From Deltaproteobacteria bacterium (GTDB lineage Bacteria; Myxococcota_A; Polyangia; Fen-1088): DNA of 64,000 nucleotides. The stretch covers positions 223,408 through 287,407 of the forward strand of contig JANRKS010000016.1 in assembly GCA_033763315.1 (NCBI GenBank). The letters are read 5' to 3'. Of the stretch, positions 2,337 through 38,120 are shown piece after piece. Every line of letters starts with the position of its first letter. The first letter of the stretch is position 1. The position numbers and the translations under genes are program-made. The notes beneath the pieces are model-generated. The model saw only the letters and a program-made list of their open reading frames with translations, searched no databases and was not told the DNA's origin.

Positions 2337-2488
2337 TTGCACAGTCCTTAACGGGTGGGAATACGAACGTACTTGCACGTCCCTTCTTTCACCCACACCT
2401 TACTTCCGCGGGGGGACGTGCGCATATCAGGGTAGGTTAGCGGCCCCTAGGCGGTGTGGACATACATCTTCCTTGTTTTTAGGGGCAA

Positions 2489-2542
2489 AAAAGTGTACTT
2501 TTCGTCGCGAAAAATAACGGGTCTGCATAAGGTCGACAGGAG
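2489..2542. promoter_or_regulatory. Divergent promoter region with two overlapping inverted repeats and an RBS for wcaJ
   Basis: AT-rich island between divergent operons: AAAAGTGTACTTTT (2489-2502, imperfect palindrome), TTTTCG-TCG-CGAAAA (2499-2513), and ACAGGAG just before ATG 2549. Confidence 0.4.
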
Positions 2543-2548
2543 CATCAC

Positions 2549-3961
2549 ATGAAGGGCGTTAGGGGCGGGGTTCTGAGGGGGCATGAGGACGCGGTGGGCG
2601 CGTTTCAGCGTGTGACCGACAGCGTCATCATCATTGCGACGCACTGGGCCGCATGCAAACTTTACGGCGAACTGTGGCGCCCGGCGATGACCAGCGCCAC
2701 GGCCATCGCTTTGGTGTTGTTCTTCTTCATCTCTGAGTTTCGCGGCCTTTACAAGCCATGGCGTGCAGAACGGTTGGGCAAAGAGGTGCAGGCGGCCACC
2801 GTGGCGTGGATCCTGGTTGTGCCATTGCTGGTGTTCGCCGCGTTCGCCACGAAGACCTCCACTCACTTTTCACGTGTCATCTCGGTGAGCTGGTTCTTAT
2901 CCACCGTGGTTGGCTTGGCCTTGGTGCGCGGGATCATTCGCTTGGTGCTGCGCGAGCTGCGGCGCATGGGCCACAACACCCGCACTTACGCGGTGCTGGG
3001 CGCCACCGAATGCGGCGAGCGCATCATCGAGGCATTTAACGACCGGCCCTGGATGGGATACCGCTTGGTCGGCACCTATGACGACCGTTCGCTTGATCGT
3101 CATCATCAGTTCACAAAAGTGGACGCAAAGCCCGGTGGGGGTGTGAACGAGCTGCTCAAGGCCGCCCATGACGGCAAGGTCGATGCCATCTACATCGCGC
3201 TGCCTTTGCGCGCCGAGGCGCGGGTGGGGGAGATCCTACGTGCGTTGGCTGACACCACGGTGACGGTTCACTTGATCGCCGACTTCTTCACCTTCGACTT
3301 GCTTCACGGACGTTGGGGCCAGGTCGGTTCGTTGCCGGTGGTCAGCATTTATGATTCGCCGTTTAGCGGCAACAACGGCTGGGTCAAACGCCTTGAAGAC
3401 ATCGTGTTGGGGTCCATCATCCTGGCCATCATCGCGGTGCCCATGCTGCTCGTGGCCATCGCCATCAAGCTTGAATCAAAGGGCCCGGTGTTCTTCCGCC
3501 AGCGGCGCTACGGGCTTAACGGCAAGAGCATCCGCGTGTTGAAGTTTCGCAGCATGACGGTTTGCGAAGACGGCCCGAACGTTGTGCAAGCCAAAGCCAA
3601 TGACGCGCGCGTCACAACCGTGGGGCGATTCATCCGCCGCACGTCGATCGATGAGCTTCCGCAATTCATCCAGGTGCTCACAGGCGAGATGTCAATCGTG
3701 GGTCCGCGCCCGCACGCCGTGGCTCACAACGAACAATACCGATCCTTGATCCATGGCTACATGCTGCGCCACAAGGTGAAGCCAGGCATCACGGGTTGGG
3801 CCCAGGTCAATGGCTTCCGCGGCGAAACCGATAAGATCGAAAAGATGGAAAACCGGGTGCGTCACGACCTGGATTACATCCATAACTGGGACCTGCTTTT
3901 GGACCTTAAGATCATTTTTCTCACAATCTTTGGGTCCAAAACGCGCAGCAACGCGCACTAG
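2549..3961 (+). CDS. wcaJ: Undecaprenyl-phosphate glucose phosphotransferase (priming glycosyltransferase)
   Basis: Four N-terminal TM helices and a CoA-binding-like middle domain. C-terminal Bac_transf motifs KRLEDI, GPVFFRQRRYG, KFRSM, RTSIDELPQF, MSIVGPRPHA, KPGITGWAQVNG.RGET, DLDYI.NW. Confidence 0.93.
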   Translation: MKGVRGGVLRGHEDAVGAFQRVTDSVIIIATHWAACKLYGELWRPAMTSATAIALVLFFFISEFRGLYKPWRAERLGKEVQAATVAWILVVPLLVFAAFATKTSTHFSRVISVSWFLSTVVGLALVRGIIRLVLRELRRMGHNTRTYAVLGATECGERIIEAFNDRPWMGYRLVGTYDDRSLDRHHQFTKVDAKPGGGVNELLKAAHDGKVDAIYIALPLRAEARVGEILRALADTTVTVHLIADFFTFDLLHGRWGQVGSLPVVSIYDSPFSGNNGWVKRLEDIVLGSIILAIIAVPMLLVAIAIKLESKGPVFFRQRRYGLNGKSIRVLKFRSMTVCEDGPNVVQAKANDARVTTVGRFIRRTSIDELPQFIQVLTGEMSIVGPRPHAVAHNEQYRSLIHGYMLRHKVKPGITGWAQVNGFRGETDKIEKMENRVRHDLDYIHNWDLLLDLKIIFLTIFGSKTRSNAH

Positions 3962-4002
3962 CGGGTTAATAAGGACGTCCTTATTTCGCAAGCGGGAACG
4001 CC

Positions 4003-5886
4003 ATGTCCAAGAAAGCTTCACCATCTGGAAGTCACGCGCTCACCACAGTGCGCGCGGGCGCGTTGGACGCTCAGCTGGACCGTGCCGTTCCTTCTGAATC
4101 GCCCACGGCCTTCTTGATGGCCACCAAAGGCGAGATGGTGGGGCGGGTGTTCCCGCTTAAGCACAACACCATCGTGGTGGGCCGCGGGGCCGAGTGCGAC
4201 ATTCAGCTTACAGACGCGTCCGTGTCCACACGTCACACCCGCTTGCTCAGCCGCCCGCACGGCTTCGACGTTGAAGATCTAGGCTCCACCAATGGCACCT
4301 TCGTGGACGATCATGCCGTCACTCGCGGCACGCTCACCTCAGGGCAACGGCTGCGCCTGGGTGCCGTTGAGTTCAAGCTGCTGTTGGATCAGCGATCGCA
4401 GCCCACGATGTTGCTTGTGCCAACGCTCGTGCAGCCAACCACGACATCGGGTGGCGCTGTGCCGCCGCGGCGCCGCTTGGAGCAAGACGTCGAGGCCGAT
4501 GAAGGCGTGTCGCTGCAGGAGATGCTGGGCAAAGGCATCCGCATTTACCGCGTGGTCCGCAAACACTTCATGGCAGCCGGGATCATCTTGGGCCTCAGCT
4601 TGCTGGCAGCGGCCATCAGTGTGATTTGGCTTCCCCCAGGCTCCAGCGCCATGTGCGAAGTGAAGCTGCACCCTGAGGAGCGCACGAACCCGGTGGATCC
4701 CACCACGTCAACAGCGCCCAAAAACAAGTCTTTGTTCGAGTCGCCTGAGCGGGCATTCATCAACCCCACATTGATCGAAACGACGCTTAAAACGTTAGGC
4801 AAGCCCGCGTACGTGGAAGAAGTTAACGCTGTGCAAGCGCGGCTCAAGCTTGAGCCTGTAAGCGAAAACGGCTACATCGCCTCCTTCAGTGAAGGGATGT
4901 TGACGCGCGGCCGGTATGATCTGGTGGCCCTGTTGACCACGCACGTGAAGACGTATGTGCAGAACGAAACGGACAAGGCCTTGAGCGTGTCGGTGGCGGA
5001 GACGGAGTTCTTGCGCGCGCAAACGGCACAAGCCGAGAAGGAACTGTCGAAGATCGATGCTGAATTGCGCACCTTCAAAGAAGAAAACCTCAGCTCGTTG
5101 CCCGAATCGGCCACACTGGCCTTGGGCTCGCGGGCGCAGATGGAAGCGCGCAAGCCAGAGCTGGTGGCGCAGCTAACGAGGCTTAAGGGCGAAATCGCCA
5201 GCGTGAAAAGCCAAATCGCCAGCGAGGGCCCCCTTTCCCAAGGCCGCACGCAATCGTCCACCGCCCACCGCACCCGGCTGGCCGCCATTAACGAAAAGCT
5301 GGCCGAATTGCGCGCCCGAAGTCTGACCGATGAACATCCCGAAGTTCGCGCGCTCGTGGAAGAGAAGAAGTTAACCGAAGGTTTGATCAACCAAGAGCTG
5401 AGCGCGGGCCAAAACGACCTTGAACGCAAGACGAGCCCGGAACTTCACGCCTTGGAAGTGAGGCTACAGAGCTTGGAGAGCCAAGAAGCAGCCTCGCGAA
5501 CCGAATTGTCTGAACTTTCGGATCGCATCCATGTGGCAAAGAAGCTGCTCACCGAGATGCCGAGGGTCGACGCTCGTCTGCAAGAACTTCTTCTCAAACA
5601 AGAAGATCAGCGCAAGCTGTATTCGCAGATGTTCGAGCAACTCAAGCGCGCCGAGGTGCGGCTGCAGCTTGAACGCGTATCGGTTTCCTCGCGTCATGAA
5701 ATCACCAGTCCGCCACGACTGTGGAAGGCACGCAAAAGCAAAGTGGCTTTGCAGCGTTTCGGATTGGCCGCCGGTTTGGCTTTCGTTGTCATTGGAATAA
5801 TGATTTTGGCTAAAGAGCTGCGTCCGATGGTGCAAGCGGCCTGGAACGCCGCCGAGGCCAACGAGCGCGGCGCCACGAGGAGTTGA
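4003..5886 (+). CDS. Polysaccharide co-polymerase (Wzc/GumC-like chain-length protein) with N-terminal FHA domain and no BY-kinase domain
   Basis: FHA motifs VVGRG..CDI.L.D.SVSTRH and DLGSTNGTFV. Then TM1, a long coiled-coil periplasmic region with LTDEHPEV, TM2, and a short cytoplasmic tail without Walker A. Confidence 0.8.
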   Translation: MSKKASPSGSHALTTVRAGALDAQLDRAVPSESPTAFLMATKGEMVGRVFPLKHNTIVVGRGAECDIQLTDASVSTRHTRLLSRPHGFDVEDLGSTNGTFVDDHAVTRGTLTSGQRLRLGAVEFKLLLDQRSQPTMLLVPTLVQPTTTSGGAVPPRRRLEQDVEADEGVSLQEMLGKGIRIYRVVRKHFMAAGIILGLSLLAAAISVIWLPPGSSAMCEVKLHPEERTNPVDPTTSTAPKNKSLFESPERAFINPTLIETTLKTLGKPAYVEEVNAVQARLKLEPVSENGYIASFSEGMLTRGRYDLVALLTTHVKTYVQNETDKALSVSVAETEFLRAQTAQAEKELSKIDAELRTFKEENLSSLPESATLALGSRAQMEARKPELVAQLTRLKGEIASVKSQIASEGPLSQGRTQSSTAHRTRLAAINEKLAELRARSLTDEHPEVRALVEEKKLTEGLINQELSAGQNDLERKTSPELHALEVRLQSLESQEAASRTELSELSDRIHVAKKLLTEMPRVDARLQELLLKQEDQRKLYSQMFEQLKRAEVRLQLERVSVSSRHEITSPPRLWKARKSKVALQRFGLAAGLAFVVIGIMILAKELRPMVQAAWNAAEANERGATRS

Positions 5887-6491
5887 ACTTGTTCGCAAAG
5901 CTTAGGTTCGCGGTGGTGGCGGTGGGGTCCGTGGTGGTGGGGTTGTGTTCTAGCTGTGCCGGATCGGGGCCGTACACGTGGGTAAGCGACGTGCGGCCCG
6001 AGGCGCCGGCGACGACACAAACGATTCAACCCCGCGATGTGTTGGCCATCAGTGTTGTGGGGCAGCCAACGCTCAGTGGTGAGTTCGCCGTGCGAGACGA
6101 TGGCGCTTTGACGGCGCCGCTCGTGGGCAGCGTGCCAGTGGCGAACTTGACGCCCACGTTGGCTGCCAACGCGCTGGCGCAAGCGTGGAAAAAGATGGTG
6201 GTGGATCCATCGGTTACCGTCACCGTGGCCAAAGCCGCCAACCCGCGCGTGAATGTGGTGGGTGAAGTGAAAACACCGGGCGTGTTCGAGCTTGTGCGCG
6301 ATCACACGGTGCTAGGTGCGTTGGCGGCCGCGGGCTGGGTCACCGATTTTGCCAGCAAAGATGGCATCTACGTGGTTCGCCGCGATCGACGCACGCCCAG
6401 GGTGCGGTTCCGCATCAGCGATCTCACCACCGCCGAGCCTCGCTCTGCCGCTTTCCTGCTGGCCGACGGCGACACCGTGGTTGTTGAATAG
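5883..6491 (+). CDS. Short OPX/Wza-family polysaccharide export lipoprotein (Poly_export + SLBB)
   Basis: Lipobox-like LCSSC; IQPRDVL.ISV, VRDDG.LT.PLVG.V, VNVVGEVKTPG; ends LADGDTVVVE with no C-terminal membrane helix. TTG start overlaps the co-polymerase stop. Confidence 0.88.
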   Translation: MNLFAKLRFAVVAVGSVVVGLCSSCAGSGPYTWVSDVRPEAPATTQTIQPRDVLAISVVGQPTLSGEFAVRDDGALTAPLVGSVPVANLTPTLAANALAQAWKKMVVDPSVTVTVAKAANPRVNVVGEVKTPGVFELVRDHTVLGALAAAGWVTDFASKDGIYVVRRDRRTPRVRFRISDLTTAEPRSAAFLLADGDTVVVE

Positions 6492-6505
6492 CGAAGGGGC
6501 CTCCC

Positions 6506-7822
6506 GTGCCCGCAATGATTTGGACCGCGCTCTTTTTAGCTCTCGAAACGCGGGGCGCCGCCGGGATCACAAGTGAAGTGCGCGCCGGACGCGCGCCTGT
6601 GTCGTGGGGCCAACCCGCTGAGACCACGGTGGCCTGGACCACGATTCCGTCGTTGAGCCTGTTCGCGTTTGATTCTGTGAAAAGCCTCAGCCTAAGCTAC
6701 ACGCCGCGGATTCTGTTGCGTGAGCCGAACATCGAACGCCGCTTGCGGCCGATCGTGTTGCATCAAGCCACGTTGCTGGGCTCTGCGCGGCTGACGCCCC
6801 GGATGCAAGGATCACTTTCCGCAATGGGCGCGGTGGGCGAGCTCGATTATTCAGCGTGGCAACAGGTGCTGGGCAACACGGGGCCGAACGTGCCGCGCAC
6901 CAACCGCTTGGCGCAAGCGGGGGCGCAGGGGCACCTGGACTTTAAGGCCTCGCCGTCGCTGACACTCGAAACCGACGCGCGCGCCTCCGTGTGGGCGCCC
7001 TTGTCGAAACAAACGCAAGCGACAGAGCAGCCTATCCCCGGACAAACAAGCTTCGTGTTGGCGCGGCAGACCAACCTCGGCTTGCAACAATCGTTGGTGG
7101 AGCAACTGTCGCGTCGAACGCGCGTCAACGCCGCAGTCGATGGTGCGTATTATCGATCGTCGGCAGGATTGCGCATATACACCATCACGCCCAGCGCAGG
7201 CTTTTCGCACTTGTTTTCGGCGCATGGAACCGTGAGCGCATCCTTGGGCATCACGATGGCTCATGAGAGCACGCCGTCCCAGCTTGGCCGCCCGGACAAC
7301 TGGCGTGTGGTGCCGGCGTCAAACTTCCGCGTCGCGAATCTTTTGGTGGGTGGCAGCGGCGGGCGTCGCCTTGAAGGAGAATTCGGCGGCTCGACGGCTT
7401 ATTTCGTGGATCCTGTTTTGGGGCGCGGGCGGTTGCGCGGCCTGGTGCTGGCGCGCTTGCGGGCGGTGTTTTCGCACGCGTGGAACGCGGCTTTGGAAGT
7501 GAATTTCTCCACGTCGCTGATGAAACATCCGTTGTTGCTGTCGAACGTGCCCACGGTGGATCCAATCACGCAGCAAGCGTTGGTCAACCAATATCCTTAC
7601 GAGACACAACTCATCGCCGTGCTGCCCGTGCGGTGGCAACCGTCGCCCGCGTATACGGTGGAGATGGGCCTGCGATTCACAGAGCGCGGTCCCCATTGGC
7701 GCGCACCCGGGTTTTCATTGCGTGAGCGAGAAACCTGGGGCTATGTGTTGGGCACGGCTTTGTTCGACTTTGGCGGCCACACGCCGGCCACCATACCCAC
7801 ACCCGCCACAACGGCGCGATAG
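6506..7822 (+). CDS. Putative outer-membrane beta-barrel protein of the polysaccharide export system
   Basis: Signal-peptide-like N-terminus, alternating amphipathic beta-strand pattern (SLSLSYTP, LGLQQSL, VSASLGIT, YTVEMGLRF), and position directly after the short OPX gene. Confidence 0.6.
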   Translation: MPAMIWTALFLALETRGAAGITSEVRAGRAPVSWGQPAETTVAWTTIPSLSLFAFDSVKSLSLSYTPRILLREPNIERRLRPIVLHQATLLGSARLTPRMQGSLSAMGAVGELDYSAWQQVLGNTGPNVPRTNRLAQAGAQGHLDFKASPSLTLETDARASVWAPLSKQTQATEQPIPGQTSFVLARQTNLGLQQSLVEQLSRRTRVNAAVDGAYYRSSAGLRIYTITPSAGFSHLFSAHGTVSASLGITMAHESTPSQLGRPDNWRVVPASNFRVANLLVGGSGGRRLEGEFGGSTAYFVDPVLGRGRLRGLVLARLRAVFSHAWNAALEVNFSTSLMKHPLLLSNVPTVDPITQQALVNQYPYETQLIAVLPVRWQPSPAYTVEMGLRFTERGPHWRAPGFSLRERETWGYVLGTALFDFGGHTPATIPTPATTAR

Positions 7823-7831
7823 ATCCACATT

Positions 7832-8419
7832 ATGAACATGAACGACAGCGCCGGCTGGGTGGGAGGCTGGACCCCGGGCATTGGGGATCCCAGCGTCGCG
7901 GGATGGGTGACTGTGTTTGCTTACGCCGCAGCCGCTTATCTATGCGGCCGCGCCTATCGACGTTCGAAGCATGCGCGCACGCCGCCCGCACAGCACCACG
8001 TGCATCGAGCGTGGGCAGCGCTGACGTTTGGCATGCTGGCCTTGGGCATCAATAAACAACTGGATCTGCAAACGGCGCTGACCGAGGCCGGGCGCGCCTT
8101 GGCGTTGCAGCAAGGTTGGTTCGAAGGGCGTCGCGTGGTGCAAGCGGCGTTCGTCCTGATCGTGGCCATCGTGGCTTTGGTGATGGCGGCTTGGCTGTGG
8201 CTGCAAACGAGGCACGGAACACCGCCTTTACGGCGGGCGTTTGTGGGCGCCGTGGCGCTGGGGGCATTCGTGGTGATTCGCGCGGCTTCATTTCACCACG
8301 TGGACCTGCTGCTGGGCCACGCCTTTGTGGGGCTGCGGCTCAACGTGCTTCTTGAGCTGGCGGGCATCGCCTGGGTGGCGTTTGGGGCCGCGAGCGAACG
8401 TGCTTTACGGCGCGTTTGA
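7832..8419 (+). CDS. Hypothetical integral membrane protein (about 5 TM)
   Basis: Hydrophobic helices with conserved-looking segments WTPGIGDP, GINKQLDLQT, RAASFHHVD. Last gene of the wcaJ operon. Confidence 0.7.
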   Translation: MNMNDSAGWVGGWTPGIGDPSVAGWVTVFAYAAAAYLCGRAYRRSKHARTPPAQHHVHRAWAALTFGMLALGINKQLDLQTALTEAGRALALQQGWFEGRRVVQAAFVLIVAIVALVMAAWLWLQTRHGTPPLRRAFVGAVALGAFVVIRAASFHHVDLLLGHAFVGLRLNVLLELAGIAWVAFGAASERALRRV

Positions 8420-10579
8420 GAGAGCGTCGGGCAAGGTGGCAGCAGCAGGCGCGGGATCCGGGGCTGCGGCGCGGCGCGAGGGAGACGTTGCGTTCATCGG
8501 CGCGGCGGCTGGCGCGGCAGCCGGCGTGGGTGCAGCGACAGGAGCCACATTGGCGACCGGCGCGGCGGGCGCAGCGGCCACGGGCGCCGATGGCGCAGGG
8601 GCTGCCGGCGATGGCGACGCCGCCGATGGCGCCGCGGGCACAGCGGCCACGGGCGCGGCGGCGGCGGGCGCGGACGTTTCAGTGTGTGGGGTGCGGCTGA
8701 GCACAATGGCCACCGCCACGGATCCCAGCGCCGCGCCGAGCAGCCCGGCCACAAACCACCCCAAGGCGAACGCCGGGCGGCCCTCCGCCTTCGAACGCCG
8801 CAATTCGGGGTCGGCGCCGTCGTTGATCTGGGGCACACCCATGCGCGGTGTGAATTGGCGCGGCAAAATCATCGTGCGTGTGGGCCCACCCGGCGGCCCC
8901 AACGGTAATTCTGCCGTGTCTTTCGGTTGCGCTTGCACCAGCGGCGCCGCGCCCTCGGTGTCGATGTCGGCGGCATCAAGCAGGATCAAGCGACGCCGCT
9001 CCGCGAACTGTTCGCTGCCGCTGTCACGAACCCAGGTGGACACTTGCCCCGACGTCGCAAACAGGCCATTGCCGGCCGCCGCCGTCTGCAGGGCCACACG
9101 CATTTCGTCGGCACTGCGAAAGCGCGTCTCCGGGTTGCGCGAAAGGGCTCGCAAACAAACATCGTCTAAGCACGCTGGCGCGCCAAATGAACTGGGGCGA
9201 TCGATCGGGCGCCGCAAAGTGTTCATCACGGTGGCCTCGAACGTTTCTTCGGCAAACAACGTTTTGCCGGTCAAAGCTGTCCACAGGACGATGCCCAGCG
9301 AGAACAGATCGGTGCGGCCGTCAATGCGCTGGCCCTGCATCTGCTCCGGCGCCATGAAGCCTGGCTTGCCCACCATGCCGCGTGCATCCAAAGACTGCAC
9401 GGCGCCGGCCGGCCTGACGCGGCCAAAGTCGGTGAGGCGCGCGCTGCCATCAACGCCAACCAAGATGTTGTCGGGCGATAAATCGCCGTGCACCAAGCGC
9501 AACGGGCGGCCGTCGTCGTCGATGAGATCGTGCAAATACTGAAGCCCCGAAAGCACATCGCACATGACCGAGACGATTGCGGCCGCCGGGGCCGGTCGGC
9601 CCGTGCCAAGCAGCTCCTGCAGGTTCAGACCCTCAACGTAGGGCATGATTAGATACGGCTGCTGTTCATAAAGCCCGGCATCAAGCACCCCGTTGAGTTG
9701 CGGGTGGGAAAGCTTGCCGCCAATGCGCGCCTCAGTCGCAAACGCGTGCTCGGCGTCGACGGTCTTATCCAGATGTTGACGTATCACCTTGAGCGCAAAC
9801 AAGCGCCGAAAACCGAAAGCGCCGGAGCGCGAACACAAATAGACAGAACCAACGCCACCTTTGGCCAAGCGCCCCACCACACGGTAAGGGCCCACGTGAA
9901 TGCGTTTCTCAAGCCCCGAGGGCGGTTCGGGCGGCGGAGCGTCCTCCACAGGAGGCTGGTTTTCCGGGTACACAAAGGAAACGTAGGGCGAGGCGCGGCG
10001 TGCCCGTGCAGCCGAAACCACTTCCATCTCGCCCGAGACGGAGCGCGGCCCGGGGGACGAGGGCGTCTCGGCGATGGGCGCCTCTGAAGGCGGGGGCGAT
10101 GCAACCTCCTCGGGCGGCACCGGCGCAGGCGCAGCGACAGCCGCCTCTGCGGCCGGCGCCTCAACCATCGGGCTCGGTGTCACCGCACGGGGGCGCGCTT
10201 CGGACGGGCCAGATCCCGCCACCTGGATGGGCGCGGGCATCGGCGAGGTGCTGCGCCCTTGGGCGCCCAAGCGGGCGCGGCGCTGCTCCAGCAGCTCGGT
10301 TAAATCCATGGTGGTGCTGCCCGCGGGCGCGCCGACGTTGCTGGGCAAAGGCTCTGCAATGCCACGATCCACCAAAGCCCGTAGGATGCGTGTGGTGGCA
10401 AAACCAGGCAAGCCGCTGGAGCTGAGGATTTCGTTCACGGTTCGCCTCCCATTGACCAGCGCGCAAACCCGCGATTCATCGGCATTCAGTGTGGAGCGCT
10501 CGGCAACATCGGCCCCGCGCAGTCGTAAAACGACGCTGCCGGGAAGGCGGTTCGATGTTGATTCGTTGGTGAGCTTCAT
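8405..10579 (-). CDS. Membrane-anchored Hanks-type Ser/Thr protein kinase
   Basis: LAKGGVGSVY, FALKVI, VHGDLSPDNILV, LTDFG, GKPGFMAPEQ, DLFSLG, P..RF.SA. C-terminal TM helix and Ala/Pro-rich tail; N-terminal winged-helix-like segment (LVNGRRTVNEI). Start at ATG 10579 (ORF track 10669). Confidence 0.92.
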   Translation of the reverse strand: MKLTNESTSNRLPGSVVLRLRGADVAERSTLNADESRVCALVNGRRTVNEILSSSGLPGFATTRILRALVDRGIAEPLPSNVGAPAGSTTMDLTELLEQRRARLGAQGRSTSPMPAPIQVAGSGPSEARPRAVTPSPMVEAPAAEAAVAAPAPVPPEEVASPPPSEAPIAETPSSPGPRSVSGEMEVVSAARARRASPYVSFVYPENQPPVEDAPPPEPPSGLEKRIHVGPYRVVGRLAKGGVGSVYLCSRSGAFGFRRLFALKVIRQHLDKTVDAEHAFATEARIGGKLSHPQLNGVLDAGLYEQQPYLIMPYVEGLNLQELLGTGRPAPAAAIVSVMCDVLSGLQYLHDLIDDDGRPLRLVHGDLSPDNILVGVDGSARLTDFGRVRPAGAVQSLDARGMVGKPGFMAPEQMQGQRIDGRTDLFSLGIVLWTALTGKTLFAEETFEATVMNTLRRPIDRPSSFGAPACLDDVCLRALSRNPETRFRSADEMRVALQTAAAGNGLFATSGQVSTWVRDSGSEQFAERRRLILLDAADIDTEGAAPLVQAQPKDTAELPLGPPGGPTRTMILPRQFTPRMGVPQINDGADPELRRSKAEGRPAFALGWFVAGLLGAALGSVAVAIVLSRTPHTETSAPAAAAPVAAVPAAPSAASPSPAAPAPSAPVAAAPAAPVANVAPVAAPTPAAAPAAAPMNATSPSRRAAAPDPAPAAATLPDALSNAP

Positions 10580-10711
10580 TGCGACACTGCGAGGGCCGGC
10601 GTCAAAATACCACGGCCTGAGGCACGTGGAATTATGTCGACTGACGCGCCGGGGCGCCGAAAGGGCCACCCACTATACAACACGTGAACCACGCGCGACC
10701 CGACCCGCAGG

Positions 10712-13291
10712 CTAAGGCCTTGACCGCTCTATGGTGAGGTAATGGCCGCGCGGGAATATGAAGCAGCTGCGATCGGCCTGCGCGCTCAGAGGGACCACAC
10801 CTTCCACCGCCCCGCTCGGACCGAGCGACTTAACAACAGCGCCAGCACCCGCATTGACACAAGCTTGGCCACGCACAGGTTCAGCCAGGTAAGGTAGCGC
10901 ATCGTTTTTCCCAGGCACAGCCTGCGCAACGTAGGAGACCAGCCAGCGGCGCGACTGTGCGAGCGGCAACCCATCCAAGCTGCTGAAGGCCACGGCCGCC
11001 TTCGCGGTGGTCAGCCGCAGTTCCACATCCCGCAGCGCGATCGTGCGGCCGCCAAGCCAGCCCGCGGCGGCTTGCGACAGCGGTGTGTCAACGGTGTGAA
11101 AGCCAGCCGCGAAGTCGCGCTTGAGCTCGCCCGTGTCGGACGTAATCTCGGACGCCCCGGGCGGGAGAAAATCTTTGTTGGGATCGTGGATGCGCTCGGG
11201 GCCCACCGCTTGGGCGCCGCGCTTGTCTTTGCCGGCAGGCTTGGGGCCCCCAGGCAATTCAATCGAGATGCGGCTTTGTTCGGTCAGTGTGCGCACAGCT
11301 GGGCACGCGGCATTGGTGCCGCCGTAAAGCTGATCCTTGGTCAGCGTCAGCGCGTAGCTGCGACGCGCTGGTTGCACGTGCCCTGCCCTAAACAGCAAAG
11401 CCGCCGCGGGCATCATGACCAGCAACGCAGGGTCCACGGCGCTGGCCCAGCGATCGCGGCGGTCGGGCGGATCGGCTGAGGTTTGTTGATAAGCGAAGTG
11501 CATGGCGGCGTTCCACCCCTGCAGCGAAGCCACAGCCGCAAAACGCAGGGGTACGGTGAAGCGATCGCGAATGAGCGGCCCATCGGCACCCCATTCGGAA
11601 ACGGCGAGGGGCAAGCCGCGCACGCGTGCGCCAGCGATCCAATCCAATAGGCCCGCGGCAAAGCGCGGGTTGCGAGATAACTCTTCTTCGTCGCCGTAGG
11701 CATGCACGTCGATGAGGTCACCGTGCAGGAGCGGCGGCAAAAACCAGAAGGCCGCTTGCCCCCAGGTGGGGCTGACAGCGATGAGCGACTTGCAGCCAAA
11801 ACCGCGCAAGTTCGCCACAGCACGGGAGAAGAAGCGGCCTTCAATGTCGGCCAACACTTGCTTGCCGTCGCCCGCCGCCCACGTGTCTTTGGCCCGCACA
11901 TGCGGCAGCGCCAAGCGCGTGCCAGCTTCGTTCACAACCTCTTCAAACAAACCCTCATGCAACGGATGGCCGCCGCCAGGATAGAGCATGGGGCCGAAGT
12001 GGCTGCCCAGATCCGCCTCATTGAGCACCTGCACAGCAAAGATGCCTGGATTGTCGGCGTAGCGCTTGCCCGTAAGCGTGCTCTTGCGATCTAGATATTG
12101 TTTTGCGAACTCGTGCATCAGCCGTTCAAGCGAGGGGTTCACAAACGCGAACGCGCGCGCTTGGTTCGCGTCCGTGATCTCAGCCACGCCGGCGGCTTTG
12201 TCGGCCCCCTTGAACAGGCGCCCCACGTGCAAATCGAGCCACACATAGATGCCTTCGTCGTTGAGGCATTTGACCCAGCGGTCGATCTTCGCCAAAGCCT
12301 CCGGCCGCAAGGAACGCGTAGAAGCGGGCGGCGCCGGAAACACATTGGGTTGCACCCAATCCGAATCGTGGTGATGCAAGCGCGCCAAGTTAAAACCGAG
12401 CGCGGCCAACCGCTTGGCCTGCGCACAGATGTTTTCATCCGACCCGCTGAACAACATGTAGCCCGTGAGATTGGTGCCCCACAACCGCAGCGGCTTTCCC
12501 GCACCATCAAGCAAGGCTTCACCGGCGGCCAAAATGCGCCCATGCACGCCGGCGGGGCGATCGTTGGCGTTGAGGAAGGAAACATCCACCGGAGCTTTTT
12601 CCCAAACGATCGTGTCGGCTTGCCACGCGCTTGAGTCGGTGGCGTAAGCAGCGTCGCGGGCGGGCACGGCTTTGCCGCCCTCGGGCAATTGCACAGTCAT
12701 GGTGAAACGGCTGCGCCCCACCGGCGTTTTGGGCCCCACAAAGAGGCAGCGAATGTGATCCTTGCCGCCGCCTTCAAAATACAAATCGGCCAGCGCGCGG
12801 CTGAATACCACTTGCAGGTTTTGGCCCTTGGCCGTTTGCCAGCGAAAACCTTTATTGCCGGGCAACAGCGTGGGTTCAGCATCGCCCAAGCTGCGTGTGA
12901 GAAAGAATTCGATGCCGCCACCCACGGCCTCGGCCACAGAACGCGCGGTGGTGACATCGTAATCAATTACGAGCCCCGTCTTTGTTGCGCTGGTGGTGCC
13001 CAAGATGGTGACGCCCAGGTCCGCCACGCCGATCGAAAACTTGGCCGCCGCTGGACCTGGAGGCAAAGCAGTGATCTTCACATCTTGCCAGCCCCAAGCA
13101 GGACCCCAAAACGCATAAGTGCTGCGCATGGCATCCGTGTATTGCGCCCGCGCCAACACGCCCCCGTCTTGCGCGGGTTGCACCGTCCACCCAGCGAAGG
13201 GCGCGACCGCTCCTGTAACTTCGCCGCCCCACAGTGGCGCGGCCGCAAGCAGCGCGGCCCCCACAACCAACCAAACCGTCCGTGTGCGCAT
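10712..13291 (-). CDS. Secreted clan GH-A glycoside hydrolase (GH5-like)
   Basis: Signal peptide; LRLWGTN, GFNLARLHH.D, GIYVWLDLH, acid/base VLNE, IDVHAY, nucleophile VSEWG. Confidence 0.75.
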   Translation of the reverse strand: MRTRTVWLVVGAALLAAAPLWGGEVTGAVAPFAGWTVQPAQDGGVLARAQYTDAMRSTYAFWGPAWGWQDVKITALPPGPAAAKFSIGVADLGVTILGTTSATKTGLVIDYDVTTARSVAEAVGGGIEFFLTRSLGDAEPTLLPGNKGFRWQTAKGQNLQVVFSRALADLYFEGGGKDHIRCLFVGPKTPVGRSRFTMTVQLPEGGKAVPARDAAYATDSSAWQADTIVWEKAPVDVSFLNANDRPAGVHGRILAAGEALLDGAGKPLRLWGTNLTGYMLFSGSDENICAQAKRLAALGFNLARLHHHDSDWVQPNVFPAPPASTRSLRPEALAKIDRWVKCLNDEGIYVWLDLHVGRLFKGADKAAGVAEITDANQARAFAFVNPSLERLMHEFAKQYLDRKSTLTGKRYADNPGIFAVQVLNEADLGSHFGPMLYPGGGHPLHEGLFEEVVNEAGTRLALPHVRAKDTWAAGDGKQVLADIEGRFFSRAVANLRGFGCKSLIAVSPTWGQAAFWFLPPLLHGDLIDVHAYGDEEELSRNPRFAAGLLDWIAGARVRGLPLAVSEWGADGPLIRDRFTVPLRFAAVASLQGWNAAMHFAYQQTSADPPDRRDRWASAVDPALLVMMPAAALLFRAGHVQPARRSYALTLTKDQLYGGTNAACPAVRTLTEQSRISIELPGGPKPAGKDKRGAQAVGPERIHDPNKDFLPPGASEITSDTGELKRDFAAGFHTVDTPLSQAAAGWLGGRTIALRDVELRLTTAKAAVAFSSLDGLPLAQSRRWLVSYVAQAVPGKNDALPYLAEPVRGQACVNAGAGAVVKSLGPSGAVEGVVPLSAQADRSCFIFPRGHYLTIERSRP

Positions 13292-13452
13292 GTTCAAGCT
13301 CCCGTGGGCTTCTTAGCGCGCCGCCGGTTTGGCGGCAGCCTGGCTGCTATGATAAAGACCGTGCGCCGCGTACGCCGGCACCAGGACATGAACGTGGCAA
13401 CGAACAACAACAGGGGCAGTGGGGGGCAGGGGATGGCACAAAGGGCGTTGCG

Positions 13453-32746: not shown

Positions 32747-34014
32747 GTCAGCAACGGCAACAGCCAACGCAAGGGCCGCTTGCGGCTGTGGTAACGAGCC
32801 CACACGGACTCGAAATAATCCCAGGTCAGCGAGGCCACGCGTGCCGGCCCTAAACGCACAGCCATATCGTTCGCCGCGGCCTCACCGAAGGCAGCCGCGC
32901 GTGCAGGATCGTTGTAAAGCGCAACCACGGCCGCCGCCAAGGCCGCAGGATCTTCGGGCGTGAACAGCAGGCCTGTGTTTTGATCCAGCAGGATCTCCGG
33001 GTTGCCACCCGTGCGTGAGGCCACCGTCGGGCACCCAAACGACAACGCCTCCACCAACGCTAAACCGAAGTTCTCGTAGCGCGAAGCCACCACGGTCACG
33101 CAGGCCGATCGGCGCAAGGGCTCGATCGCATCGCCTGCCAGCGGCCCCCGCACATCCACGCGCGCTTGCACCGCAGGCGGCAACTTTGTGCGCACATACG
33201 TGGGCAGATCGAACTGCGTGCCAGAATCGTCTCGCAACCCACGATCGGGCCCCACAAACACCAACCGCGCTTGCGGACAAGCCGCAGCGATGTGCACAAA
33301 GGCATCCAGCATGATGTCGCCGCCCTTGTGGCGGTCGAAACGGCCCACGAACAAGATGGTTTGTTTGTCGCTCGTGGCGGGCGTCCAACGCCGCGCGGGT
33401 TCAATCGTGGGTCCGGGATTCGGAATCACGGCCGCGTTTGGCAAGGCAAGTCCATGCTTGCGTCTCACGGCCTCGAGCACATCACGCGATGGCGCCGTCA
33501 AACCATCGGCGTCCCGCATGCAGCGCCGCTCGGTGGCGTCACGTAACGCAAACGCCGCGTCCTGCTCAAGGCCCAACGCGTTGCCGTTCAAGAACCACGG
33601 GCCATGCAACCGCACCACCAGCGGCAGATCGATCATCTGCTGCAAATACCAAGCGGCCCCAAATGATTCTTCCACTTCCAACAAGCCGGGTTGCAGCCCT
33701 TTTGCTTGCAGGCCGCGCAAGCCGCTGGCGAGCTGTAACGCCAGCGCTGCGCCCGTTGGTTCCACGAACGGCACCTTGCCAAGCGCCCGCAGCAGCAAAC
33801 GAATCCGCTTACGGTTCGGCAGAGCCGCCATGTCGAACGTGGGTGCATTGTCCGCTGCGTCGGCCACGCTGGCCGACATCACGTGAACCTGTTTGCCTTG
33901 CGCCACAAGCGCGTCTTTGAGGGCGCCCACATAGGTGACGATGCCATTCGCCACACGCCCTGGCGGCCATCCCGGGCTGAAGAACGTCGCTGAGTTGTTA
34001 CTAGTGTCGGACAT
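32743..34014 (-). CDS. GT4 glycosyltransferase
   Basis: NGIVTY, VVRLHGP, VIPNP, LFVGRFDRHKG, SRYENFGLALVEA...G.P.V. Start at ATG 34014, overlapping the wzx end. Confidence 0.9.
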   Translation of the reverse strand: MSDTSNNSATFFSPGWPPGRVANGIVTYVGALKDALVAQGKQVHVMSASVADAADNAPTFDMAALPNRKRIRLLLRALGKVPFVEPTGAALALQLASGLRGLQAKGLQPGLLEVEESFGAAWYLQQMIDLPLVVRLHGPWFLNGNALGLEQDAAFALRDATERRCMRDADGLTAPSRDVLEAVRRKHGLALPNAAVIPNPGPTIEPARRWTPATSDKQTILFVGRFDRHKGGDIMLDAFVHIAAACPQARLVFVGPDRGLRDDSGTQFDLPTYVRTKLPPAVQARVDVRGPLAGDAIEPLRRSACVTVVASRYENFGLALVEALSFGCPTVASRTGGNPEILLDQNTGLLFTPEDPAALAAAVVALYNDPARAAAFGEAAANDMAVRLGPARVASLTWDYFESVWARYHSRKRPLRWLLPLLT

Positions 34015-35347
34015 GAATCCTCGGCAGCCACGGCAAGATTGCCAAACCCACACCCATGGCTGCAAGGAAGATGCCCACAGACAGCAGTTCACGCCGCAAT
34101 CTCAAAATCTTCAACGAACGCAACTTCGGCCACACAATGAAAAACGCGGGAACCTCCGCCAACACCGAGGCCCAAATCACGCCCACCACACCGCCAAAAT
34201 GCCAACCAAGGGGAATGCCCACCAGCGTGCTCACCAAGCGGCTCACGCTGCGCCAAAAGCCATAGCGGGTGTGGCCAAGCGAAAACAAGCACGTCTCACC
34301 GGGCCCCACGATGCAACTGACCGCCACACGCACACACAAGATACGCAATATCCACGCGGCGTCGGTGTAGCGATCGTCCCACAACGTTGTGATCACCCAA
34401 CCGCCCATGCCCACCAACAAGCCGGTGCCTGTCATCGACAAAGCGTCGAGGCGTAAACGCACGCGGTAATACATCGCCGACATGTCACTGCCGGGTTCGC
34501 GCGCCGCTTGGCTTAACACCGGATAAACGATGCCGCCGATCAAGCGGCCAATCACCGCCGATACCGCTTCGCTGAGATTTAGCGCCACTGAGTAGATGCC
34601 CAGCCATCCGGCGCCGAGGAAGCGACCCAACAAGATGCGATCGCTTTGGCCACCGAGAAAACCAACCGCGGTGCTACCAAAGATCCAGCGGCCAAAATGG
34701 CTGATCTCTTGATAAGCGGCTTTGTCCCACGCAAAGCGGTTGCGGTACGGGACGGGGAGAAAATGCGTGGCGATCGCATATGCCAGCGAAGCCGCGACGC
34801 CTCCGCCCACCAATGGCCACACGCCAGGGCGCGCCCAGGCCCACGGGATCATGATCACCAAGCTCAACACGCTTTGCCCCAACTCAAGCGCCGTGATCCA
34901 CCCCAGCGCCAAGCGACGCCGCAAAGTGTAGACCGACGTTGAGTGCAAACCACCAAACACCAGCTGCAGCGATCCAAAGCAAATGAGCGGCGCCAATTGC
35001 GGCTCTTTGTAAAACCACGCCGCCGGGTAAGCGAGCACGACCATAATGAACGCCAGCACGCAACCACGCACCGCCTGAAACGTGAACGCGGTGTTGACGA
35101 ACGTGGGCTCTTCGCCGCGCGGGCTTTGAATCAAGAACTGCTGCACGCCCACATCGGACAGCAGCACCAGGCCCATGATCAAAATGCTGACGAGCGTGGA
35201 CAGGCCAAACGCTTCAGGAAACAGCAAACGCGTGAGAATGAGGTTGCTGCCCAACCGCATGACTTGTTGGGCGCCGTAACCGCCCAACTCAAAGGCCGAC
35301 CCGCGCAGCACGCGCTTGCGCAAACTGCCGGGCGCCGCCGTTGTCAT
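34001..35347 (-). CDS. wzx: Wzx oligosaccharide flippase (MOP/PST family)
   Basis: RLGSNLILTRLLFPEAFG, LSDVG, DRILLGRFLG...LGIYSVA; multi-TM. Start at ATG 35347. Confidence 0.88.
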   Translation of the reverse strand: MTTAAPGSLRKRVLRGSAFELGGYGAQQVMRLGSNLILTRLLFPEAFGLSTLVSILIMGLVLLSDVGVQQFLIQSPRGEEPTFVNTAFTFQAVRGCVLAFIMVVLAYPAAWFYKEPQLAPLICFGSLQLVFGGLHSTSVYTLRRRLALGWITALELGQSVLSLVIMIPWAWARPGVWPLVGGGVAASLAYAIATHFLPVPYRNRFAWDKAAYQEISHFGRWIFGSTAVGFLGGQSDRILLGRFLGAGWLGIYSVALNLSEAVSAVIGRLIGGIVYPVLSQAAREPGSDMSAMYYRVRLRLDALSMTGTGLLVGMGGWVITTLWDDRYTDAAWILRILCVRVAVSCIVGPGETCLFSLGHTRYGFWRSVSRLVSTLVGIPLGWHFGGVVGVIWASVLAEVPAFFIVWPKLRSLKILRLRRELLSVGIFLAAMGVGLAILPWLPRIHVRH

Positions 35348-35447
35348 GCAAGCCCCTTGAAACAAGCGTGTTTCTGGCGAGCGAACAAACGAGCCGCGGC
35401 TTGGATGAGCATTTGCAAAGCGAGGGGCCCGACCATACCATTGCCAC

Positions 35448-37889: not shown

Positions 37890-38120
37890 TAAGACAGAGT
37901 CCCCAGAGGGAAGATAGAATGGGGGGCACAGCCTGTGCACACAAATTTCGCGCCAACACCGCGCCGCCGTCCGCCCCTACAAAACCCGCGCTTTGCACTT
38001 AAGACGGCGTCCAATGCGGGAAGATGACGTATCCTCGCCGTAACCAACCTGACACGAAGATCCAGCAATGACTCATCCGCTACCTAGGGCCTTGATCAAC
38101 CCTTGTCGAACCATCGCGCC

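Follow-up and report, generated by a model that had tools for sequence, protein, structure and literature searches.

How is a polysaccharide co-polymerase (PCP) controlled that carries a cytoplasmic FHA domain and no BY-kinase, and does the membrane Hanks-type Ser/Thr kinase encoded close by take part? This question is raised by a locus in the window, that is, the whole stretch of 64,000 nucleotides that was analysed. The reading that we favour, with reasonable but not high confidence and on the basis of sequence, is that a complete Wzx/Wzy EPS pathway is encoded here—PHPT, glycosyltransferases, Wzx, Wzy, PCP, short OPX, and outer-membrane beta-barrel—and that its PCP belongs to an undescribed regulatory type, which features an FHA domain together with a dedicated, co-evolved non-RD Hanks kinase and does without a BY-kinase.

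The export pathway of the locus

The following genes are considered:

2549..3961, + strand: priming phosphoglycosyl transferase (PHPT), a WcaJ-type undecaprenyl-phosphate glucose phosphotransferase (TIGR03023, 534.4 bits; cut-off 410.75)
4003..5886, + strand: FHA-PCP, a 627-aa polysaccharide co-polymerase whose cytoplasmic N-terminus carries an FHA domain and which lacks a BY-kinase domain
5883..6491, + strand: short class-3-like OPX lipoprotein of 202 aa without a Wza_C pore domain (Pfam Poly_export 67.6 bits, SLBB 37.9 bits)
6506..7822, + strand: outer-membrane beta-barrel of about 18 strands, OPX partner with an EpsX-like role (AF2, Foldseek)
7832..8419, + strand: 195-aa membrane protein with three hydrophobic segments, role unassigned; its last nucleotides are shared with the convergent kinase gene
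8405..10669, - strand: membrane Hanks-type Ser/Thr kinase (Pkinase 111.4 bits); start possibly M31 at 10579
10712..13297, - strand: 861-aa protein with an N-terminal hydrophobic segment, weakly similar to GH5 cellulases (Pfam Cellulase 26 bits; cut-off 23.5)
34001..35593, - strand: Wzx-type flippase of the same pathway (Pfam Polysacc_synt_3, 161.6 bits), with NRPS genes between it and the core
36498..37940, - strand: Wzy-type polymerase candidate (Pfam Wzy_C, 35.2 bits; cut-off 31.7)

The PHPT is also matched by Pfam Bac_transf and CoA_binding_3 and has a homologue in 33 of the 41 FHA-PCP loci compared. The OPX gene starts before the FHA-PCP gene ends, overlapping its stop, and is the sole Poly_export match in a genome with one PCP and one OPX. 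The beta-barrel protein is matched by no Pfam or NCBIfam family; its AF2 model is all beta (pLDDT 84.4, pTM 0.79), with the OccK/OprD porins and the alginate exporter AlgE as Foldseek matches (E about 1e-8), and homologues occur in 32/41 loci. This order of a ~200-aa OPX lacking Wza_C followed by the gene of an 18-stranded beta-barrel is shared with the EpsY/EpsX translocon, as described in the available parts of PMC9601211, PMC9603273, and PMC12819527, whereas the OPX of this locus stays below the cut-off of NF041843 EpsY (142.7 bits; cut-off 320). FHA, forkhead, or threonine are not mentioned in the main texts of the three papers.

The 195-aa protein, for which no Pfam or NCBIfam family lies above cut-off, has homologues in only 3/41 loci. 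The GH5-like gene is located directly upstream of the kinase gene on the same strand, and this pair recurs in four loci of family f11 (L076, L079, L080, and L081), with fragments in L077. The flippase and that of other FHA-PCP loci are homologues (527 bits), and the Wzy candidate is homologous (225 bits) to a multi-TM protein conserved in 16/41 loci.

Architecture of the FHA-PCP

The cytoplasmic and C-terminal parts of the FHA-PCP comprise:

4108..4386, + strand: FHA domain, residues 36–128, with R61, S75, H78, and N97 (Pfam, AF2, Foldseek)
4393..4509, + strand: disordered cytoplasmic linker, residues 131–169, with T135 and the stretch QPTTTSGG (pLDDT <50)
5743..5883, + strand: TM2 and a C-terminal cytoplasmic tail of 24 aa with neither a Tyr nor a Walker motif

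The preliminary description had seen a Wzc/GumC-like protein with an intact-looking FHA domain ahead of TM1 and a tail of about 25 aa devoid of Walker A and Tyr after TM2, and on both points the protein is as described. Residues 57–120 match Pfam FHA (E 2e-15, 57.4 bits; cut-off 20.7), the AlphaFold2 model features a confident beta-sandwich at residues 36–128 (block pLDDT 77–90), and G60-R61, S75-x-x-H78, and N97-G98 are invariant in all 27 full-length homologues found (alignment A1). The best Pfam score belongs to Yop-YscD_cpl (residues 42–126, 66.6 bits), but the closest solved folds as judged by Foldseek are GarA, OdhI, and FhaA (31–34% identity, rmsd 1.1–1.6 Å; GarA/OdhI PDB 6i2p, 4qcj, and 2kb3), which outrank YscD and PscD. 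The tail after TM2 is basic.

The membrane helices, TM1 (~187–209) and TM2 (~581–603), enclose a long helical, Wzc-like periplasmic coiled coil. Neither Wzz nor GNVR of Pfam is matched, and the chain-length determinant model TIGR03007 reaches 79.3 bits over residues 313–612, below its cut-off of 278.85; by structure, Wzc of the Wza–Wzc complex (9r68_I) is matched over 530 columns with an E of 2e-9. The FHA-PCP and the PCP-2a Wzc of E. coli (PDB 9r68) have in common two TMs around a long helical periplasmic domain, an HMM of Wzc built from this class matches the periplasmic part and TM2 in 17/41 loci, and both genes adjoin OPX and PHPT in a Wzx/Wzy pathway. However, Wzc features a C-terminal BY-kinase with Walker motifs and a Tyr cluster, whereas the FHA-PCP lacks these and carries the N-terminal FHA domain instead, at an identity of ~12%.

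The membrane Hanks-type kinase

Within the kinase, three parts are of interest:

9035..9904, - strand: kinase domain
8873..8875, - strand: juxtamembrane T599
8717..8773, - strand: the one TM, residues 633–651, a C-terminal anchor

Pfam Pkinase covers residues 262–490, and the catalytic residues—K294, D396 in a non-RD loop (H-G-D), N401, and D414-F-G—are invariant across 21 orthologues; judged by these residues, the kinase is catalytically intact. Its activation loop contains no Thr. The position given to the kinase beforehand, convergent and 2.5 kb downstream of the PCP stop, is confirmed, as are the TM and the overlap with the operon, the kinase gene and the 195-aa ORF 7832–8419 sharing 15 nt at their 3' ends.

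Kinase linkage and conservation of the FHA domain

Across 401 genomes of the class, 72 contain a full-length FHA-PCP match; these belong to families f1, f11, f16, and f7. Among the 150 top-ranking cluster representatives (clustered at 50% identity), ~130 are of the PCP type (E ≤ 1e-67). An orthologue of the kinase lies within ±9 kb of the FHA-PCP gene in 22 of the 41 loci, which stem from four taxonomic families; 19/41 loci are without a linked kinase, and in another four genomes the orthologue is present but not linked. The arrangement varies: 10 loci have the kinase immediately upstream in the same orientation, the order is kinase–PHPT–PCP in three, and in six the GH5-like gene and the kinase gene run divergently from PHPT. 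Against the kinase domain of this locus, the linked kinases score 216–303 bits and the best paralogue of its own genome 175 bits, the threshold for orthology having been set after the data were seen. In the FastTree phylogeny, the 21 intact linked and four unlinked kinases group together in a clade that has no other member (25 sequences, support 0.997); outside it fall 30 paralogues from this genome and the top hits from 10 genomes without the kinase. The comparison supports an association of FHA-PCP and Ser/Thr kinase that exceeds mere adjacency, with kinase and FHA domain belonging together.

The residues that contact phosphothreonine (pThr) follow the kinase. R61, S75, H78, and N97 are all present in 26/26 loci whose genome has a kinase orthologue, and the set is complete in 0/12 loci from 10 genomes without one (best kinase hit 158–193 bits, or none reaching E 1e-50). 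The changes are N97 to E (five loci), R61 to S (five loci), and loss of the FHA domain (two loci). Because the loci are related, this contrast of 26 against 0 rests on perhaps three to four independent losses (g10 with g2, g5, and g38). In genus g10, where no kinase orthologue was found, the FHA domain persists with R, S, and H kept and N97E—hence, the domain may also have a phospho-independent role. Taken as comparative evidence, the pattern suggests that the kinase has co-evolved with the FHA-PCP.

For the phosphorylated Thr itself, the QPTTTSGG stretch of the linker had been put forward; it exists but falls in a gapped, unconserved part of the family alignment. T135 (nt 4405–4407, in S-Q-P-T-M-L-L-V) directly follows the last FHA strand in a segment of pLDDT <50 and is invariant in 27/27 A1 sequences; its position is T in 22/26 kinase-positive loci, the exceptions being L074, L078, L083, and L084. 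The juxtamembrane Thr of the kinase is T in 21/21 aligned orthologues, nearly invariant as T599 (alignment A2), and a strict T-phi-phi-phi motif, defined after the data were seen, occurs in 17/21 kinase linkers compared with 2.0 expected from shuffles. T135 and T599 are the better candidate phospho-sites, and the ligand preference of FHA domains agrees with T-phi-x-phi motifs.

BY-kinases and phosphatases

That FHA domain and kinase replace the Wzc tyrosine kinase, as proposed beforehand, holds per locus: A BYK-only HMM matches in 0/41 FHA-PCP loci, with the limit that HMMs would miss a strongly diverged BY pseudokinase partner such as one of the EcpK type (PMC12004946). The conserved neighbours include no P-loop protein and, as judged from the neighbour listing rather than a dedicated search, no PP2C-type phosphatase. 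In this genome (91% complete), TIGR01007 and TIGR03018 give no match above cut-off and no BY-kinase was detected; the BYK-like matches are only ORFs that read as MinD/ParA/Mrp/FlhG-type from Walker A and size. Per genome, the proposal does not hold, since 61/72 FHA-PCP genomes have a canonical Wzc-type BY-kinase hit elsewhere; 11/72 have no BYK hit at E ≤ 1e-20. Most of the hits listed for the relatives fall within open frames of ~720–840 aa, suggesting Wzc proteins with a PCP part of their own. As most relatives carry such a separate Wzc elsewhere, the FHA-PCP is a parallel system.

Relation to known systems

EpsV–EcpK of M. xanthus and HfsA–HfsB of Caulobacter likewise contain PCPs without a kinase domain, and they share with the FHA-PCP the myxobacterial-type EPS pathway with short OPX and beta-barrel as well as the departure from control by Tyr phosphorylation, as far as the available text of PMC12004946 goes. 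There, the system is described as phosphorylation-independent and relies on a P-loop pseudokinase partner; for the FHA-PCP, no partner of this kind was detected, whereas a Hanks kinase and an FHA reader are conserved. The main text of PMC12004946 contains no mention of FHA, forkhead, or threonine.

GarA and OdhI are soluble metabolic regulators with the Thr motif N-terminal to the FHA domain, whereas here the FHA domain is fused to a membrane PCP and the candidate Thr is C-terminal to it. Both feature a single FHA domain, and their phosphorylatable Thr motif in a flexible extension can bind the FHA domain of the same protein. The phosphatase PppA belongs to the threonine-phosphorylation module of the T6SS. 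This system, PpkA–TssL–Fha, is a precedent for FHA/Ser-Thr-kinase control of an envelope machine: As with the proposal made here, the assembly of a trans-envelope secretion machine is gated, via a pThr on an inner-membrane component, by a membrane-bound Hanks kinase acting with an FHA reader, but the FHA protein is separate and soluble and the cargo is protein, whereas here FHA is fused to the PCP (PMC3953482, seen in part). A further precedent is PknF–Rv1747 of M. tuberculosis, which in the available parts of PMC3138270 and PMC8339232 is an envelope exporter with cytoplasmic FHA, Thr sites in an unstructured linker, and a cognate Hanks kinase gene beside the exporter gene, all as in the FHA-PCP. 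Rv1747, however, is an actinobacterial ABC transporter with two FHA domains, in contrast to a Wzx/Wzy co-polymerase; Foldseek also matched its FHA-1 structure (6ccd). No printed description of a PCP controlled by FHA and a Hanks kinase was found.

Alternative readings

FHA domain and Hanks kinase might be an added input only, with the PCP still dependent on an unlinked BY-kinase or pseudokinase scaffold on its short tail, like EcpK–EpsV and HfsB–HfsA. A PCP-2 without kinase domain and with an unlinked BY pseudokinase is documented, and such pseudokinases lack Walker motifs and Tyr tail and are, therefore, hard to detect (PMC12004946, available part); the short basic tail is kept in the FHA-PCP, and a BY-kinase hit occurs somewhere in most of the FHA-PCP genomes. 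The apparent MinD/ParA-like nature of the only BYK-like ORFs in this genome, the lack of a P-loop protein among the conserved neighbours, the frame length of the relatives' hits, and the 11 genomes without a hit speak against this scaffold, which we regard as unlikely. About equally doubtful is a chiefly structural or adaptor role of the FHA domain that does not depend on phosphorylation, like that of the FHA-like cytoplasmic domain of T3SS SctD/YscD, the kinase having its target elsewhere—for example PHPT or transcription—and the PCP tethering the kinase or not binding it at all. The top Pfam score for Yop-YscD_cpl and the persistence of N97E domains in genus g10 suit this account, as does the position of the kinase next to PHPT in several arrangements, with EPS of M. 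xanthus being regulated at the PHPT level according to the part of PMC12802240 available. Yet the four pThr-contact residues are kept wherever the kinase is present and degraded where it is missing, the nearest folds are genuine pThr readers, and the T-phi-x-phi motifs conserved in both partners agree with what FHA domains prefer.

A chance neighbourhood in a kinase-rich genome, with the FHA domain reading phosphorylation by unrelated kinases, is strongly disfavoured and by far the least probable account. This genome does contain 111 Hanks-kinase ORFs in 7.63 Mb, ~1 per 69 kb, and the kinase is here convergent and not co-transcribed; nevertheless, one orthologue clade is linked in over half of the loci across four families and several gene orders, and the pattern of co-loss is difficult to attribute to chance.

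Proposed mechanism

FHA-PCP and kinase are, on the comparisons above, probably a new regulatory PCP variant that works as an FHA/Hanks-kinase phosphothreonine switch. In the scheme that we infer, from each phosphorylation and each binding event to the consequences for the polymer, the kinase would autophosphorylate at juxtamembrane T599 ([R/Q/K]-T-phi-phi-phi) and thereby create a docking site for the FHA domain of the PCP. The docked kinase would then phosphorylate the disordered PCP linker at T135 (D/P-A/P-T-phi-x-phi) or a neighbouring component of the machine. Contacts between pThr and FHA, in cis or between protomers, would determine the assembly state of the ring that the PCP forms and, with it, polymerisation and export—a cycle that would be the functional analogue of the Tyr-cluster cycle of Wzc. 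A PCP that has an FHA reader, lacks a tyrosine kinase, and has apparently co-evolved with its own membrane Ser/Thr kinase suggests a mode of switching polysaccharide secretion that has not been described.

The FHA-bearing co-polymerase

The co-polymerase encoded at window 4003–5886(+) (FHA-PCP, 627 aa) features an N-terminal FHA domain, two transmembrane helices (TM1, residues ~187–209; TM2, ~581–603) with a helical periplasmic domain between them, and a tail of 24 residues after TM2 that holds neither a Tyr nor a P-loop. This is the layout proposed in the preliminary description: an FHA domain on a two-TM, Wzc-like body with a short tail. The FHA domain scores 57.4 bits against the Pfam FHA model (cut-off 20.7) and carries G60-R61, S75-x-x-H78, and N97-G98 in full; the AlphaFold2 (AF2) model and Foldseek both return the 11-strand β-sandwich of the FHA fold. 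In FHA domains, the Arg of G-R, the Ser and His of S-x-x-H, and the Asn of N-G have roles in phosphothreonine (pThr) contact, and R61, S75, H78, and N97 are invariant in 27/27 homologues. As judged by domain match, fold, and contact residues, the domain is a predicted phosphothreonine reader.

The periplasmic helices span residues 307–562 according to AF2 secondary structure and hydropathy, and Foldseek aligns the periplasmic domain with Wzc (9r68_I, E 2e-9). The Pfam models Wzz (PF02706) and GNVR (PF13807) give no match in FHA-PCP, TIGR03007 reaches 79.3 bits and stays under its cut-off of 278.85, and a Wzc HMM derived from the surveyed class matches relatives in 17 loci (E down to 1.8e-14), the window's protein not among them. 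Because no curated PCP threshold is reached, the assignment to the PCPs is based on fold and topology together with weak homology and context.

Such proteins are not rare: 72/401 genomes of the class contain a full-length match (best E ≤ 1e-60), and among the best 150 cluster representatives at 50% identity, ~130 are PCP-type at E ≤ 1e-67, the remainder being FHA-only proteins or fragments; at E ≤ 1e-30 there are 1230 proteins, multi-FHA proteins and fragments included. Database labels read "FHA domain-containing protein," "hypothetical protein," and, twice, uncharacterized EPS-biosynthesis protein.

Ahead of the FHA domain lies a short N-terminal helix (L-D-A-x-L-D-R-A-V-P, residues 20–30, window 4060–4092), which is nearly invariant in 27 close homologues, recognizable in family f11 as G-L-D-x-M-L-E-V-V, and diverged in kinase-less lineages.

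Locus organization and export pathway

The genes around the FHA-PCP are the following (strand in parentheses where given).

Genes of the window around the FHA-PCP
2–259 (−), GT2 fragment
256–1053 (−), WecG-type glycosyltransferase
1050–2396 (−), GT4
2549–3961 (+), WcaJ-type priming phosphoglycosyl transferase (PHPT), above the TIGR03023 cut-off
4003–5886 (+), FHA-PCP
5883–6491 (+), short outer-membrane polysaccharide export protein (OPX), 202 aa, Poly_export and SLBB only, without the Wza_C pore domain
6506–7822 (+), 438-aa protein, predicted ~18-strand barrel, matching no family
7832–8419 (+), 195-aa membrane protein
8405–10669 (−), Hanks kinase
10712–13297 (−), 861-aa GH5-like protein
34001–35593, Wzx flippase beyond an NRPS block, homologue of the flippase in other FHA-PCP loci
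36498–37940, Wzy_C protein beyond the NRPS block, homologue of the polymerase in other FHA-PCP loci

The FHA-PCP is thus encoded together with an OPX, a PHPT, Wzx, and Wzy, the context expected of a PCP. The OPX without Wza_C adjoins the gene of a predicted outer-membrane β-barrel, whose model (pLDDT 84.4) resembles AlgE and OccK porins. The Wzx and Wzy_C homologies and the barrel model point to a complete Wzx/Wzy system with a predicted composite translocon of short OPX and β-barrel. Left of the window lie genes for a UDP-glucose pyrophosphorylase-family protein, a GT4, an acyltransferase, and GT2s, and no kinase was found among the genes of this flank. The GC content of the genome is ~61%; with this, its 111 Hanks-kinase ORFs, the TubC docking domain of an NRPS, and PCP homologues whose database names include "Polyangia bacterium," the genome is probably that of a Polyangia-type myxobacterium. 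In a scan of 2300–13500, no promoter-like site turned up, and terminator-like ones numbered 12 versus 14.1 expected.

The NRPS block (16810–32803, ~15 kb) contains genes for a PPTase and for two NRPSs of 1394 and 3680 aa, the first NRPS featuring TubC docking and C-A-T-TE domains. It separates the EPS core genes from the Wzx/Wzy genes of the pathway (34001–37940), so that the polysaccharide locus is split. The 195-aa protein, whose gene sits between those of barrel and kinase, has three hydrophobic segments and no family match; its gene overlaps the 3′ end of the kinase gene by 15 nt, and homologues occur in just 3/41 loci.

The associated Ser/Thr kinase

The kinase of this locus is a membrane Hanks-type Ser/Thr kinase (STK) of the non-RD type (H-G/C/A-D). 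Its Pkinase domain (111.4 bits) retains all catalytic residues: across 21 orthologues there is no change at K294, E313, D396, N401, or D414-F-G. As the preliminary description states, its gene is convergent with the PCP operon. A single TM (633–651) lies C-terminal to the kinase domain and is followed by an Ala/Pro-rich tail. DUF4388 was detected in 3/8 scanned orthologues.

Linkage was surveyed within ±9 kb of 40 FHA-PCP genes from 38 genomes (families f1, f7, f11, and f16), with neighborhood ORFs searched by the window's proteins and the window's own locus added to give 41 loci. A kinase domain is linked in 22/41 of these loci, in the following arrangements.

Position of the linked kinase (L numbers denote FHA-PCP loci)
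Directly upstream on the same strand as the PCP (10 loci): L046, L050, L053–L057, L071, L083, L084 (the kinase stop codon of L084 overlaps the PCP start codon)
Upstream of the PCP with a gap: L048, L052
Order STK-PHPT-PCP: L047, L049, L051
GH5-like-STK, divergent from the PHPT: L076, L077, L079–L082 (in L082, the GH5-like gene falls outside the fetched stretch)
Downstream, convergent: the window's own locus

Against the window's kinase domain, the linked kinases score 216–303 bits, and unlinked orthologues in four genomes (G262, G290, G132, and G297) score 226–260 bits; the window's genome holds 111 Hanks-kinase ORFs, and the top scorer among the 110 others reaches 175 bits. In a FastTree phylogeny, 21 intact linked and the 4 unlinked kinases group in one clade with no further member, 25 in all (support 0.997); 30 paralogues from the window's genome fall outside it, as do the best hits of ten genomes in which no orthologue was found. 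The kinase of L077, which is split into two ORFs, was left out of the tree and of the motif counts. Given the orthologue scores and the exclusive clade, chance adjacency does not explain the linkage. Kinase/FHA gating modules of envelope machines may include a cognate PP2C phosphatase; general annotation of the window's genes and of those conserved neighbor clusters that were annotated returned no phosphatase family.

The 861-aa protein (10712–13297(−)) matches GH5 weakly and has a hydrophobic segment at its N-terminus. Its gene lies directly upstream of the kinase in the window, L076, L079, L080, and L081, with fragments in L077, and the pair is kept across families; the protein may act as a hydrolase that trims EPS or belong to the input that the kinase senses. 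In f11, ten loci carry a small PilZ-domain protein (L072–L074, L076–L079, L081, L082, and L085) and five an FHA-HisKA-HATPase-receiver hybrid (L074, L078–L080, and L082), which suggests c-di-GMP and two-component inputs into the same machine.

Joint loss of kinase and FHA pocket

No kinase orthologue turned up in ten genomes with fetched loci (G190, G215, G365, G172, G397, G230, G275, G031, G020, and G041): the top matches reach 158–193 bits, with nothing in G041 at E 1e-50, under a bit-score boundary that was set after the gap had been seen. G210, outside the fetched loci, also has none. The FHA pocket is intact in 0/12 loci of the ten kinase-less genomes versus 26/26 loci of genomes with an orthologue, all of which keep R61, S75, H78, and N97 (L065, L073, and L085 left out); since the loci are related, the contrast represents some three or four independent events rather than 38 independent observations. 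The kinase-less loci feature N97 to E in five cases, R61 to S together with S75 to A or E in another five, and complete absence of the FHA domain in two. By linkage in the neighborhoods, the orthologue clade, and this co-loss, the kinase is genetically coupled to its FHA component, as in the kinase/FHA gating modules PpkA–Fha of the T6SS and PknF–Rv1747. The inventory of components and the joint evolution of kinase and FHA-PCP are what is shown here.

In nine loci (L058, L059, L060, L062, L063, L064, L067, L069, and L070; genera g10, g2, and g38) PCP and short OPX form one open frame of 833–959 aa with no intervening stop, for example, L062:8393–10891(−). PCP-type proteins of such length also occur in the representative library (P0127, 840 aa; P0138, 849 aa). 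The fusions are found where the kinase orthologue has been lost and the FHA pocket has decayed or disappeared; a fused protein would need its OPX signal peptide either to serve as a third TM or to be cleaved off.

Candidate phosphorylation sites

The linker between kinase domain and TM is unalignable apart from one column that is Thr in 21/21 kinases, followed by hydrophobic residues. In the window's kinase this juxtamembrane residue is T599 (G-P-T-R-T599-M-I-L-P), nearly invariant also in the global kinase alignment. A strict T-φ-φ-φ pattern, defined post hoc, occurs in 17/21 linkers versus 2.0 expected from composition-preserving shuffles. The PCP features a comparable residue: T135 (S-Q-P-T-M-L-L-V) is invariant in 27 close homologues, is Thr in 22/26 kinase-positive loci, and lies directly after the last FHA strand in a segment (131–169) that is disordered in AlphaFold2. 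Many FHA domains prefer a hydrophobic residue at +3, and both motifs have one there. The stretch QPTTTSGG, put forward in the preliminary description as the phosphorylated part of the linker, lies in its variable portion and was dropped as unconserved. Binding of the FHA domain to the kinase is expected to require a phosphate; a complex prediction, in which none can be placed, of the FHA domain (residues 18–132 of the PCP alignment) with the kinase juxtamembrane segment (residues 578–630 of the kinase alignment) gave a score of 0.00 (mark 0.32), which speaks neither for nor against the interaction.

Relation to BY-kinases

PCP-2a and PCP-2b depend on a fused or partner BY-kinase with Walker A/A′/B motifs and a C-terminal Tyr cluster. 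With its 24-aa tail free of Tyr, the FHA-PCP carries no fused BY-kinase, and with no partner of this kind detected it would fall under neither PCP-2a nor PCP-2b. In the window's genome, TIGR01007 and TIGR03018 give no match over cut-off, an absence that is not proven at 91% completeness (90.85%). Each model returns six sub-threshold matches, the best at 67 bits, which by their KGGxGK[ST] Walker A and size read as MinD, ParA, FlhG, Mrp, and two ParA-like proteins. Nine Wzc proteins from the surveyed class served to build an HMM of the bacterial tyrosine kinase domain only; in this genome it finds just the ParA-like ORFs (≤52.6 bits), and it matches 0/41 FHA-PCP neighborhoods at E ≤ 0.01. Exactly one TIGR03007-like PCP and a single Poly_export OPX are encoded in the genome, both at the FHA-PCP locus. 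A very divergent BY pseudokinase partner of the EcpK kind may act with the FHA-PCP, but no EcpK-equivalent partner was detected with it.

The best sub-threshold hits (G000:C22:113538–114962 and G000:C16:180085–181479 of the window's genome) are ParA/MinD-like ATPases of ~465–475 aa with long C-terminal extensions, one of them 43 kb left of the window (G000:C16:223408–287407).

Across the class, 334/401 genomes have a BY-kinase match over cut-off. A BY-kinase (E ≤ 1e-20) is encoded elsewhere in 61/72 FHA-PCP genomes and absent from 11, the window's genome included; these tallies and the count of 72 include the unpublished genomes G332 and G364, on neither of which any fetched locus or specific claim depends. 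Among the BY-kinase matches listed, most lie in open frames of ~720–840 aa and look like fused Wzc proteins with a PCP part of their own. The notion that the FHA-PCP replaces Wzc therefore fails when taken genome-wide, and was abandoned on this cross-tabulation; the companion BY-kinases, mostly in Wzc-sized frames, mark the FHA-PCP as a system parallel to Wzc.

Proposed mechanism

All biochemical steps of the mechanism are ones that we infer by analogy with the GarA/OdhI FHA-regulator mechanism and with the PknF–Rv1747 and PpkA–TssL–Fha modules. PknF–Rv1747 is a kinase/FHA module of an envelope exporter (PMC3138270, PMC8339232) and PpkA–TssL–Fha one of the T6SS (PMC3953482). The membrane kinase would sense a signal, either with its extracytoplasmic tail or with the DUF4388-like region at its N-terminus, and autophosphorylate at T599. 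The FHA domain of the PCP would dock onto pT599, and the docked kinase would then phosphorylate T135 or another component. FHA–pThr contacts would finally set the assembly state of the PCP and, with it, polymerization and export.

A bolder version, which we consider rather unlikely as a whole, makes the FHA-PCPs a fourth mode of co-polymerase control, in which pThr runs a cycle of ring assembly and disassembly that drives Wzy polymerization and OPX coupling. The tethered kinase, docked by its own pT599, would phosphorylate linker residue T135 in each protomer, and the FHA domain of either the neighboring or the same protomer would take up pT135—a Ser/Thr reinvention of the Tyr-cluster mechanism of Wzc. 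In lineages without the kinase, the FHA pocket would have decayed and PCP and OPX would have fused.

Comparison with known systems

The modes set beside the FHA-PCP are the Wzz type, the BY-kinase type, and the BY-pseudokinase type, the last recognized only in 2025. The periplasmic body of the FHA-PCP resembles that of Wzc, but those BY-kinase features that define PCP-2 were looked for and not found. The nearest described departure from BY-kinase control of PCP-2 is EpsV–EcpK, a phosphorylation-independent arrangement with a P-loop pseudokinase (PMC12004946). No FHA-bearing PCP was found in the literature searched, myxobacterial PCP/OPX papers included, mention in supplements or subscription journals being possible. 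We rate the FHA-PCP as a candidate new regulatory class of PCP built from known modules.

To our knowledge, the coupling of polymerization to export by PCPs is still explained almost entirely through BY-kinases. If the proposed control holds true, the regulatory head of PCPs would be modular, and eukaryote-like Ser/Thr signaling could gate a Wzx/Wzy machine directly—a natural system with a different chemistry, in which the oligomerization-cycle model would become testable.
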